From: a virus
Lineage: Duplodnaviria; Heunggongvirae; Uroviricota; Caudoviricetes
Reading direction: 5' to 3' (one strand)
IMG/VR virus record: IMGVR_UViG_648276670_000009
Span: 1 to 17,898 of that record
DNA length: 17,898 nt
The first letter of the stretch is position 1, and the number at the start of each line of letters is the position of its first letter. Below the pieces are notes generated by a model. It saw only the letters and a program-made list of their open reading frames with translations. It was not told the origin of the DNA and did no database searches. This document shows, one piece after another, positions 1,078-17,898 of the stretch. The position numbers and the translations under genes were made by a program.

Positions 1078-1118
1078 ACAAAAAAGCCACCGTTGCAACT
1101 TAAGAGTCACTAACGGCA
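1078..1118 (-). terminator. tR'-like intrinsic terminator just downstream of the late promoter
   Basis: Minus-strand GCTGCCGTTAG...AACGGTGGC hairpin (9-bp stem with two G-U pairs) followed by TTTTTTGTTT; lies ~10-45 nt downstream of the putative PR' start. Confidence 0.5.
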
Positions 1119-1130
1119 GCTTACCCTCTA

Positions 1131-1160
1131 ATTATGGCTAAATGGCTAATTGCATGTCAA
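1131..1160 (-). promoter_or_regulatory. Late promoter PR'-like (Q-utilisation region expected here)
   Basis: Minus strand TTGACA (1160..1155), 18-nt spacer, CATAAT (1136..1131); the -35 overlaps the last codons of Q and the -10 sits just after the Q stop. Position corresponds to lambda PR'. Confidence 0.5.
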
Positions 1161-1656
1161 GGTTTTTAACAGCAACATGCTTAACTTTCTCAACACGTTT
1201 ACGCATTTTGAAAGCATTTTGCATTGGCTGGTATAAAACAAATAATGACGCCTTCAGGATGTCGTCAATTTCGTTTCTACAGGTTGCCAGTGAAGGTTTT
1301 CTCCATCCCTCGCCACCACGTCCACACATCTTGCGTGGCTTTGCAGTCGCGTGATAGTAGGATGCAATTGCTCGCTTAGATGAACCATGAGCGTAGTAGC
1401 TGAGGAGGATGCCAAAGGCTTTCTTGTCAATGTACATGACGGAATCGACGACCTGAGAAATCAACATTCCATCATCATCATTACACATTGGCCTTGTCAT
1501 AACTCTTCCCGGCTCTACGCTCTCCATGAACTTCGCTATTACGCTGCTCATGCGCTTTTCCAGGCGACCTGAATAAACCCATGCGCCCCACAGTTCAAGC
1601 CAGCCATTCAGCCAATCGTGCTGCTCTTTGGTGAGGTTTAGTTCTCTTATGCCCAT
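1138..1656 (-). CDS. Q: Late-gene antiterminator Q (non-lambda Q type)
   Basis: 172-aa ORF in the Q position (after ninI, before PR'/tR' and S). Sequence is unlike lambda Q; the family assignment rests on position plus vague recall of Q21/933W-type Q proteins. Confidence 0.55.
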
Positions 1657-2318
1657 GCGCCTTCTCCCTGTACCTGAATCAATGTGAGGTTTCCGCAGAA
1701 CACCGCGCCGGTATCGATATACATCTGGTTGGCAAATTTGAGTGGTTTCACTGCTGGCGTATGACCAAAGATGAACGTGTCCGCTCCTTTGATTTCTTTC
1801 ACGATCCCGTCTTGTGAGTTGCTGATTCGTTCGCGGTTCCAGATTACCTGCTGATGATCAACTGGCTTTCCAAATTCGTATTCGTCACAAGGATAATCGG
1901 CGTGGCAGATGACATATTTTTTATCTTTGCTCACCAGTTCGATGATTAGCGGAAGTTCATCTGCTTTATGGGCAAGAGCTTTAGCCAGAATTTCTTTGTC
2001 GTAATCGAGATTAAAGAACCAGCCACCGCCATTAAGCTGCCAGTGATTAACGTTTCCACGCTCTGATAAGCCATCAATCATCATGTGCTCATGGTTTCCA
2101 CGTACAGCTCTGAACCAGGGGAATGTGATTAATTCCAGGCATTCGACGTTCTCTGTACCGCGATCAACCAAATCGCCCACTGAGATAAGCAGGTCTTTTT
2201 TGGTGTCGAATACTATCGTCTCCAGTTTTTTCATCAGGTTCGTGTAGCATCCGTGCAGATCGCCAACTACCCAAATATTTCGGTATTTGCTGCCATCAAT
2301 TTTTTCGTAATAGCGCAT
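1647..2318 (-). CDS. ninI: NinI Ser/Thr protein phosphatase (lambda PPase-like)
   Basis: From [25 protein letters not shown]...GNHE, the calcineurin-like phosphoesterase motifs GDLHG, GDLVDRG, GNHE are present and the sequence is near-identical to recalled lambda orf221. Start chosen at the MRYYEK ATG (2318) with GGAG 8 nt upstream; the upstream in-frame extension overlaps ninH. Confidence 0.85.
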
Positions 2319-7002: not shown

Positions 7003-7242
7003 ATTGGTGAGAATCGAAGCAACTTGTCGTGCCAATCGAGCCATGTCGTCGTCGACGACGCCCCATTCAAGAACAGCAAGCAGCATTGAGAACTTTGGAA
7101 TCCAGTCCCTCTTCCACCTGCTGATCTGAGACTTATCAACGCCAACAGCTTCCGCTGTCTTCTCAGTTCCAAGCATTGCGATTTTGTTAAGCAACGCACT
7201 CTCGATTCGTAGAGCCTCGTTGCGTTTGTTTGCACGAACCAT
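6946..7242 (-). CDS. cII: Transcriptional activator CII
   Basis: From MVRANKRNEALRIESALLNKIAMLGTEKTAEAVGVDKSQISRWKRDWIPKFSMLLAVLEWGVVDDDMARLARQV..., near-identical to recalled lambda CII. The ORF-track extension upstream of this Met is not used. Confidence 0.9.
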   Translation of the reverse strand: MVRANKRNEALRIESALLNKIAMLGTEKTAEAVGVDKSQISRWKRDWIPKFSMLLAVLEWGVVDDDMARLARQVASILTNKKRPVCKTERSDQIQMEF

Positions 7243-16650: not shown

Positions 16651-17898
16651 CTATATTGCTGAAGGTACAGGCGTTTCCATAACTATTTGCTCGCGTTTTT
16701 TACTCAAGAAGAAAATGCCAAATAGCAACATCAGGCAGACAATACCCGAAATTGCGAAGAAAACTGTCTGGTAGCCTGCGTGGTCAAAGAGTATCCCAGT
16801 CGGCGTTGAAAGCAGCACAATCCCAAGCGAACTGGCAATTTGAAAACCAATCAGAAAGATCGTCGACGACAGGCGCTTATCAAAGTTTGCCACGCTGTAT
16901 TTGAAGACGGATATGACACAAAGTGGAACCTCAATGGCATGTAACAACTTCACTAATGAAATAATCCAGGGGTTAACGAACAGCGCGCAGGAAAGGATAC
17001 GCAACGCCATAATCACAACTCCGATAAGTAATGCATTTTTTGGCCCTACCCGATTCACAAAGAAAGGAATAATCGCCATGCACAGCGCTTCGAGTACCAC
17101 CTGGAATGAGTTGAGATAACCATACAGGCGCGTTCCTACATCGTGTGATTCGAATAAACCTGCATAAAAGACAGGAAAAAGTTGTTGATCAAAAATGTTA
17201 TAGAAAGACCACGTCCCCACAATAAATATGACGAAAACCCAGAAGTTTCGATCCTTGAAAACTGCGATAAAATCCTCTTTTTTTACCCCTCCCGCATCTG
17301 CCGCTACGCACTGGTGATCCTTATCTTTAAAACGCATGTTGATCATCATAAATACAGCGCCAAATAGCGAGACCAACCAGAAGTTGATATGGGGACTGAT
17401 ACTAAAAAATATGCCGGCAAAGAACGCGCCAATAGCATAGCCAAAAGATCCCCAGGCGCGCGCTGTTCCATATTCGAAATGAAAATTTCGCGCCATTTTT
17501 TCGGTGAAGCTATCAAGCAAACCGCATCCCGCCAGATACCCCAAGCCAAAAAATAGCGCCCCCAGAATTAGACCTACAGAAAAATTGCTTTGCAGTAACG
17601 GTTCATAAACGTAAATCATAAACGGTCCGGTCAAGACCAGGATGAAACTCATACACCAGATGAGCGGTTTCTTCAGACCGAGTTTATCCTGAACGATGCC
17701 GTAGAACATCATAAATAGAATGCTGGTAAACTGGTTGACCGAATAAAGTGTACCTAATTCCGTCCCTGTCAACCCTAGATGTCCTTTCAGCCAAATAGCG
17801 TATAACGACCACCACAGCGACCAGGAAATAAAAAAGAGAAATGAGTAACTGGATGCAAAACGATAGTACGCATTTCTGAATGGAATATTCAGTGCCAT
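16651..17898 (-). CDS. cscB: LacY-family oligosaccharide:H+ symporter, sucrose permease CscB-like
   Basis: 415-aa ORF with 12 hydrophobic segments, starting at the last base of the window (ATG 17898..17896); recalled as matching CscB of the E. coli csc sucrose regulon, which is known to lie near argW. Confidence 0.7.
   Translation of the reverse strand: MALNIPFRNAYYRFASSYSFLFFISWSLWWSLYAIWLKGHLGLTGTELGTLYSVNQFTSILFMMFYGIVQDKLGLKKPLIWCMSFILVLTGPFMIYVYEPLLQSNFSVGLILGALFFGLGYLAGCGLLDSFTEKMARNFHFEYGTARAWGSFGYAIGAFFAGIFFSISPHINFWLVSLFGAVFMMINMRFKDKDHQCVAADAGGVKKEDFIAVFKDRNFWVFVIFIVGTWSFYNIFDQQLFPVFYAGLFESHDVGTRLYGYLNSFQVVLEALCMAIIPFFVNRVGPKNALLIGVVIMALRILSCALFVNPWIISLVKLLHAIEVPLCVISVFKYSVANFDKRLSSTIFLIGFQIASSLGIVLLSTPTGILFDHAGYQTVFFAISGIVCLMLLFGIFFLSKKREQIVMETPVPSAI

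Follow-up and report, generated by a model that had tools for sequence, protein, structure and literature searches.

This locus raises two questions: how the late genes of the prophage are switched on past the end of Q, and what occupies the 540 bp between the terminator that follows Q and the holin gene S. The window, i.e. the whole stretch of 17,898 nucleotides analysed here, had been described in an initial annotation as carrying a very short PR'-tR' unit that overlaps the Q stop codon and works with a non-lambda Q. With a probability of about 0.9, we regard this unit as the late-control cassette of a lambdoid P22-like prophage, belonging to the phage 21 "type 3" and to the subtype of Sf6, L, ST64T, HK75 and CUS-3. 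The cassette is the phage 21/Sf6/L version of the lambdoid late-gene switch; the element is of an already known kind and an already annotated allele, and its finding is not new. The switch itself is another copy of a textbook system, and the RNA adjacent to it is the only part with real potential for novelty. All pR'-tR' features lie on the minus strand, and with the Q gene they are the following:

1656-1138, minus strand: Q antiterminator gene, 172 aa, phage 21 Q family (open reading frame list and homology)
1160-1155, minus strand: pR' -35 hexamer TTGACA, within Q codons 166-168, aligned with the annotated phage 21 pR' -35
1151-1144, minus strand: putative upstream Q-binding subsite AATTAGCC, core TTAGCC, a direct repeat at -27 to -20, the same position as phage 21 QBEu ATTGAGCA
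1143-1136, minus strand: putative downstream Q-binding subsite ATTTAGCC, a direct repeat equivalent to phage 21 QBEd AATGAGCA, including the Q stop TAG
1136-1131, minus strand: pR' -10 hexamer CATAAT (promoter scan and phage 21 alignment)
1124, minus strand: putative transcription start G (+1), the seventh base past the -10, aligned with the annotated phage 21 start
1123-1118, minus strand: putative sigma-dependent pause element TAAGCT, -10-like, +2 to +7, the same as the annotated phage 21 SDPE
1122-1076, minus strand: intrinsic terminator tR', made of a hairpin (1122-1084) and a T tract (1085-1076)

The sequence itself shows the promoter and repeats, the pause element and terminator, and the homology of Q, all cis elements and the Q protein being present and intact in the window. 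The promoter scan found TTGACA and CATAAT separated by an 18-nt spacer, a near-consensus sigma-70 promoter with 11 of 12 consensus positions. It overlaps the last seven codons and the stop of the 172-aa Q gene, with the TAG (1140-1138) placed between the hexamers, as had been noticed in the initial annotation. No other match of at least 11/12 at this spacing exists on either strand of the 17.9-kb window, for a chance expectation of 0.09 (18 of 200 shuffled sequences contained one); at a lax threshold of 9/12 there are five promoter-like matches vs 4.6 expected from shuffles. The start is most probably G1124. The tR' hairpin has a 17-bp bulged stem with the loop CUUA and a predicted free energy of -20.2 kcal/mol (z = -2.9; one of 200 shuffles was equally stable), it contains TAAGCT in its 5' arm, and it is followed by the T tract TTTTTTGTTT. 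A simple terminator scan of the window did not include this hairpin in its list; tR' is annotated as a terminator in the Sf6, HK75 and phage 21 records. With the start taken at G1124, the unmodified terminated RNA is predicted to be about 46 nt long. Thus, an intrinsic terminator does lie within the ~45 nt originally proposed, and the very short transcript is paralleled by the phage 21 terminator, which extends from +3 to +50, and by phage L, whose first tRNA begins 46 bp past the putative start (PMC8022706).

The comparison with the phage 21 late region, which had been suggested along with the initial annotation, was run, and the promoter, repeats, pause element and terminator align position for position. 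The phage 21 record annotates the -35, the QBE (ATTGAGCA + AATGAGCA), the -10, the start, the SDPE and the terminator, and there are window bases aligned to all of them. The layout is the same in both: a -35, two 8-bp repeats, a -10, the start, TAAGCT at +2 to +7 and a terminator from +3. The pause element and hairpin (1123-1086) are identical to phage 21 in 38 of 38 nt, with diverged flanks. Codons 1-90 of Q are ~99% identical to phage 21 at the DNA level, and identity is ~66% in the stretch 1390-1125, which takes in residues 91-172 of Q, both promoter hexamers, the repeats and the sequence up to +1; past the T tract the similarity stops. Moreover, the same cassette, 97-99% identical, is found in Sf6, HK75, CUS-3, Huey, ST64T, L and BTP1, and it is annotated as pR'/qut/tR' in Sf6 and HK75. 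Together with the phage 21 register, these annotations support the reading of the PR'-tR' unit as one of the Q-dependent type.

Sharp mosaic junctions are visible when window positions 1086-1660 are compared with phage 21. In JEP4 and S.Inf 5-2, a phage 21-type Q with its repeats is joined to the window-type downstream RNA, so that the hairpin serves as a joint for recombination.

Pfam places the Q protein in PF06530 at 1.3e-25, and it matches the solved phage 21 Q chains (PDB 6JNX/6P18) with an E-value of 4e-92 over residues 1-162. The Pfam search of Q matched only PF06530 and DUF1133, leaving the lambda-type PF03589 and the 82-type PF06323 unmatched. It is thus a non-lambda Q, as claimed, and the check for homology to a non-antiterminator family did not speak against the reading. 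Identity is 99% to Sf6 gp59 and 85% to Q21 overall, being ~98% in residues 1-93 and ~60% in residues 94-162, with a divergent loop at 105-121. The two 8-bp direct repeats (1151-1136) between the -35 and the -10 keep the phage 21 register, but their core is TTAGCC twice vs TGAGCA twice in phage 21, so that two of six bp differ in each subsite. Among the Q21 residues that contact the QBE (S93, K94, H95, R113, A124, T125, R127, R128), six of eight are kept and two are changed, H95R and R128N. In Q21, it is R128, H95, A124 and R127 that read bases, with R113 in the minor groove, and both subsites are required (PMC6606751); two of these four base-reading residues, H95R and R128N, are the ones changed here.

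The changes in the Q residues and in the repeats would fit an altered specificity and not a loss of binding. In the eight phages examined, a 172-aa Q with N128 always goes with TTAGCC-type repeats and a 162-aa Q with R128 with TGAGCA (8/8), and this complete association points to the C-terminal half of Q and the repeats as a module of specificity that may be inherited together. Judging from this co-variation only, the Q of the window would bind TTAGCC. The idea of a variant QBE matched to a divergent Q half is already published for phage L, where the QBE was proposed as AATTATCC/ATTTAGCC and the divergence of Q was seen to begin at residue 94, in the QBE-contacting segment, different target specificities being expected (PMC8022706). 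Such a natural pair, TGAGCA/R128 vs TTAGCC/N128, with the RNA-polymerase-binding half, pause element and terminator in common, offers a ready test of how Q reads its site, as well as a source of orthogonal antitermination parts.

At its C-terminus (window 1170-1138, minus strand) Q is 10 residues longer than Q21, because the frame runs on through the -35 and the upstream repeat; hence the Q gene of the window overlaps the -35 and the repeats, unlike that of phage 21. The last six residues of Q21 touch RNA polymerase (10.1101/651190), and the 10-aa tail might change this contact.

Homology with phage 21, for which structures are known (6P18/6P19/6JNX), allows the working of the switch to be outlined after the ring/torus mechanism drawn from the Q21 structures (10.1101/651190; PMC6606751). 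The host sigma-70 RNA polymerase would initiate constitutively at pR', near 1124, and would then pause as sigma region 2 re-binds the -10-like TAAGCT at +2 to +7, a pause predicted from the phage 21 counterpart of this motif. Without Q, transcription would terminate at the hairpin and U tract, after ~46 nt. When Q is made from the early-right operon, two protomers would occupy the direct repeat AATTAGCC/ATTTAGCC that lies between the -35 and the -10, and the upstream one would be loaded onto the polymerase during its pause, forming a ring ("nozzle") at its RNA exit channel. Hairpins would be blocked in the Q-loaded polymerase, which would ignore terminators and cross tR', so that the late leader, the lysis genes and the virion genes would be transcribed. 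Both the binding of Q to the variant repeats and the antitermination are expected by homology to phage 21.

The terminated RNA of ~46 nt could in addition act in trans as a regulatory small RNA of lysogens, like StxS of the Shiga-toxin phages, although this seems improbable. In those phages the pR'-tR' transcript, constitutive in lysogens, is processed into the Hfq-binding sRNA StxS, and the authors of that work suggest functions for the short RNAs of phages 21, 82 and P22 as well (PMC7547250). Promoters of the pR' type are constitutive in lysogens; CATAAT is nearer to the consensus than the AACACT of phage 21, which predicts an abundant 46-nt transcript, and this transcript would end in a hairpin and U tract, the usual Hfq-binding 3' end. 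However, StxS derives from a 258-nt transcript under a different Q type and has single-stranded regions for binding Hfq and targets, whereas the 46-nt RNA of the window is nearly all stem: the fold places +3 to +41 within the terminator hairpin, with no obvious single-stranded seed. Its strict conservation is, furthermore, already accounted for by the roles of pause element and terminator. As for a hairpin that merely ends the early-right operon after Q, next to a promoter-like sequence matched by chance, this can be set aside as highly improbable. In its favour, the hairpin does lie directly past the last early gene and would also halt unmodified polymerase coming from upstream, and promoter-like matches at 9/12 are about as common as in shuffles (5 vs 4.6). 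Against it, the 11/12 promoter is unique in the window (0.09 expected), is conserved with the Q-binding repeats in every homologous phage compared and is the counterpart of the pR' that experiments defined in phage 21; between Q and S there is no second candidate for a late promoter.

One phage record counts against the assignment of pR'. The HK629 record puts its "putative late promoter" elsewhere, though in this phage an HNH cassette is inserted at +1. HK629 (808-1630 of the compared segment) has the window-type -35, repeats and -10, followed at +1 by a cassette with a separate -10-like motif (TATGCT), a separate terminator and a gene for an HNH endonuclease; beyond it there is a second copy of the TAAGCT hairpin. 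The insert has the appearance of a mobile element whose insertion point is precisely the late start site.

With pR'-tR' read as the Q-dependent late switch, the second question concerns the DNA between tR' and S. The absence of a convincing open reading frame there, pointed out initially, was confirmed: the longest frames have 50 aa (GTG start, minus strand, 745-593) and 68 aa (plus strand, 766-972), and one phage record labels their equivalents hypothetical proteins. These 540 bp are better explained by a conserved structured RNA (1074-786) and a lambda-like leader (791-542), followed by what remains of S:

1074-998, minus strand: late-leader RNA domain 1, a long hairpin (folds and covariation)
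1003-786, minus strand: late-leader RNA domain 2, tRNA-like (minimum free energy fold and covariation)
791-542, minus strand: S-proximal late leader, 95.5% identical to lambda, also present past the Sf6 tRNA genes
541-402, minus strand: 5' fragment, ~47 codons, of a lambda-type holin S (Pfam PF05106)
315-1: N-terminus of an IS21-family transposase, the gene for which begins at 315 and continues beyond the window edge

The S-proximal leader carries a "bsq3" boundary-sequence annotation in CUS-3. Homology to intact prophages ends at 402, and an IS21-family insertion fills 1-401, with the junction near 401/402. As this element interrupts S, unlike in the Sf6, L, HK75, CUS-3 and Huey cassettes, the late operon is broken and the switch cannot cause lysis in this copy; the prophage is lysis-defective. 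Among complete E. coli genomes, none was found to have the window together with its IS junction.

In thermodynamic folding, the RNA past tR' forms a long hairpin and then a cloverleaf-like domain, with a T-like hairpin directly before the 3' closing strand. The first domain is a stem of ~20 bp, in which an A is bulged, the apical part is hypervariable and CACAAC (1074-1069) pairs with GTTGTG (1003-998). The second is closed by GUUGUGGUG (1003-995) paired with CGCCACAAC (794-786) and contains a D-like hairpin (991-976), a variable centre and a T-like hairpin (813-795); a loop-loop pairing of GCUGA (985-981) with UCAGC (805-801) is predicted. The arm pattern was found in at least 120 viral contigs and at least 55 distinct variants, the arms being constant and the centre hypervariable, and a scan anchored on the 24 nt past the hairpin returned at least 114 distinct upstream sequences, many of them with wholly different yet complementary arms. 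This RNA thus appears to occur in hundreds of enterobacterial phage contigs, and exact matches were obtained in species representatives of ~20 Enterobacterales genera. Among the matches listed, it is co-oriented with its neighbours in ~88%, and nearby tRNA genes are always on the same strand. The surroundings are also recurrent: in 21 of the 43 distinct variants with an upstream ORF among the listed matches, this ORF is a Q of one of three unrelated Pfam families; of the 51 that have a downstream ORF, 27 encode a holin there, the holins belonging to five families.

Lambda itself has a copy. At 44,788-44,947, directly past the tR' T tract where the 6S RNA ends, lies the same long hairpin, followed by a second domain, which is shorter. 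The lambda sequence after tR' reads CACAACAGGTAAGAGCATTGA...CAGTGCTCTTTCCGTTGTG; the second domain has GUUGUGCUG and CAGCACAAC as its closing strands, and this pair is a compensatory variant of GUUGUGGUG/CACCACAAC. The tRNA-Thr of Sf6 and phage 21 has its 3' end aligned with the 3' strand of the closing stem, and the same S-proximal leader comes next. The late leader therefore has a "tRNA slot", which holds either real tRNAs or the tRNA-derived RNA.

Covariation was evaluated in a 27-sequence alignment. The late-leader pairing is formed in 93.2% of cells vs 87.8% in shuffles and 32-54% when partners are slid; 13 pairs are changed on both sides, a number that none of 500 shuffles reached, and in the long hairpin 11 of 13 pairs show compensation. 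In this alignment the closing stem effectively amounts to 7 bp. It takes the form GUUGUG-G-UG with C(A/G)-C-CACA in 93-95 of 116 distinct sequences, and the lambda version, GUUGUG-C-UG with C(A/G)-G-CACA, in 66 of 77, there being four exceptions to this G/C vs C/G swap; these counts are of sequences and not of independent events. The loops also change together: the variant GGUCGAU was seen solely with UUCGAC (3/3), and in a sister class the canonical tRNA D loop AAUGGCG always goes with the canonical T loop UUCGAUU (26/26). G-U pairs account for about 10% of the pairs in the late-leader stems, and in 100 of 112 sequences the sense strand folds more stably than its complement. The shuffle control of the long hairpin is weak, 15 of 112 shuffles reaching 12 pairs under a lenient walk, and therefore we rely on the covariation counts. 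RNAalifold, given arms-only sequences, recovered only eight pairs, because the bulge shifts the register between variants. Covariation, G-U pairs and strand asymmetry would all indicate that selection acts on an RNA fold and not on duplex DNA.

They bear directly on the alternative that the conserved 1074-786 is not a functional RNA, being a decayed tRNA gene or a DNA-level "boundary sequence" that acts as a recombination linker between Q and the lysis genes. The near invariance of the arms across phages agrees with a linker, as do the known mosaic boundaries of lambdoid phages and the "bsq" boundary sequences that CUS-3 annotates nearby, and a decayed tRNA gene would agree with the real tRNA genes that fill the same slot in Sf6 and phage 21, their tRNA-Thr 3' end aligned with the closing-stem strand. 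We consider this alternative rather unlikely, however, in view of the compensatory changes in the long hairpin (11/13, equalled in 0 of 500 shuffles), the closing-stem swap held with four exceptions, the double changes in the loop-loop pairing, and the G-U pairs (~10%) and stabler sense strand (100/112) described above. Our own reading, that 1074-786 is an unnamed conserved "late-leader RNA" made of an RNase III-type hairpin and a tRNA-derived domain in which the closing stem is acceptor-like and a Watson-Crick kissing interaction of 5-6 bp takes the place of the D/T loop contact, likely involved in processing or stability, is put forward as a tentative one.

The hypervariable tip of the hairpin holds a canonical tRNA T arm (GGTTCGAnTCC) in seven viral contigs (L116, L135, L138, L147, L153, L208 and L239), beside the 3' strand of its stem. 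The long hairpin may hence be tRNA-derived as well, or it may capture tRNA fragments.

Several known elements were compared with the late-leader RNA. Its second domain resembles a tRNA in its 7-bp closing stem and its D-like and T-like arms, but it was rejected as a tRNA, as it gave no ARAGORN or Rfam tRNA match even at E<=5 and has a centre of ~160 nt and non-canonical loops; ARAGORN found no tRNA in the window. Bacterial Y RNA was considered because some hairpin tips carry T-arm sequences. YrlA has a GNCGAAN0-1G motif near its 5' end, adjoins the Ro60 gene (rsr) and has nearly invariant T and D loops. This candidate was rejected, since the conserved arms lack the motif, the neighbours are Q and holin genes instead of rsr, and there is no Rfam match. 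An integron attC-like site, considered because inverted conserved ends flank a variable centre, was discarded on account of the G-U pairs, the strand asymmetry and the co-orientation with flanking genes, no integrase being associated with the late-leader RNA. The prophage sRNAs Pas and STnc100 were checked and are different elements.

Searches for an existing description gave the following. Rfam 15 at the gathering threshold assigned no family anywhere in the window; at E<=5-10 the region and other loci returned only noise and neighbouring tRNAs, and in 15 other loci that carry the late-leader RNA only tRNAs were matched. No RefSeq annotation underlies it in 341 E. coli genomes, and phage records have at this place nothing or small hypothetical ORFs. 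A full-text literature search for the sequence returned nothing relevant, and neither the tRNA-like domain nor the conservation across the family turned up as described in a literature search of limited extent.

The long hairpin, with a stem of ~20 bp and one bulge, deserves separate comment. RNase III sites consist of about two helical turns of double-stranded RNA and are cleaved in vivo. An article of 1988 by Daniels et al., Virology 167:568, cited in PMC7547250, is said by its title to deal with RNase III sites in vivo in the Q-dependent late RNA of lambda. The 20-bp hairpin of lambda at 44,788-44,862, which corresponds to 1074-998 of the window, is an obvious candidate for an RNase III substrate, and the long hairpin may be the site reported in 1988; that title covers neither the tRNA-like domain nor the family-wide conservation. 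Our best guess for the role of the late-leader RNA, made by inference only, would be a processing or stability signal read by RNase III and/or RNase P, which would detach the pR'-proximal leader and set the 5' end of the late mRNA. If this RNA is indeed undescribed, then lambda and hundreds of its relatives carry at the head of the late operon an unannotated RNA supported by covariation. If the proposal is true, it would also tie the puzzling tRNA genes found at the same position to a general function in RNA processing.

The genes around this locus place it in the early-right arm of a lambdoid prophage. Beyond a divergent gene for a cI-like repressor, those transcribed on the minus strand are, in this order, cII, O, a DnaB-type helicase gene, NinB, NinG, a NinI-like phosphatase gene, Q and S. 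The CII-binding consensus TTGC-N6-TTGC occurs only twice in the window, at 1331-1344 and 7220-7233, both on the plus strand, 1.7 being expected. The first copy is antisense inside Q, like paQ of lambda and phage 21, and the second is antisense in the 5' part of cII, facing the repressor gene, like pRE. This number is at chance level, and it is the positions that would be telling. At the right edge of the window, past the early-left region, a LacY-family sugar permease gene (16651-17898, minus strand, Pfam E 1e-193) is either host DNA flanking the prophage or cargo.

Compared with its closest relatives, the switch shows little variation. In Sf6 (gene 59), L and ST64T (gene 23), HK75, CUS-3 and Huey, Q is 98-99% identical, and the TTAGCC-type repeats, the -10, the pause element and the terminator are the same. 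The upstream subsite is AATTAGCC in the window and Sf6, and AATTATCC in HK75, CUS-3, Huey and L. After tR', Sf6 and L have tRNA genes, whereas the window, HK75, CUS-3 and Huey have the structured RNA. Phage 21 is more distant: its promoter has a spacer of 17 nt instead of the 18 nt of the window and a much weaker -10 (AACACT, as opposed to CATAAT), and the tRNA-Asn and tRNA-Thr genes that follow its tR' are absent in the window. Finally, lambda shares the logic of the system, with a constitutive promoter past Q, Q binding between the -35 and the -10, a sigma-dependent pause, a terminator and S. However, its Q belongs to an unrelated family (PF03589), its terminated RNA has 194 nt vs the ~46 nt predicted here, and its pause element stands apart from the terminator, while that of the window lies inside the terminator stem.
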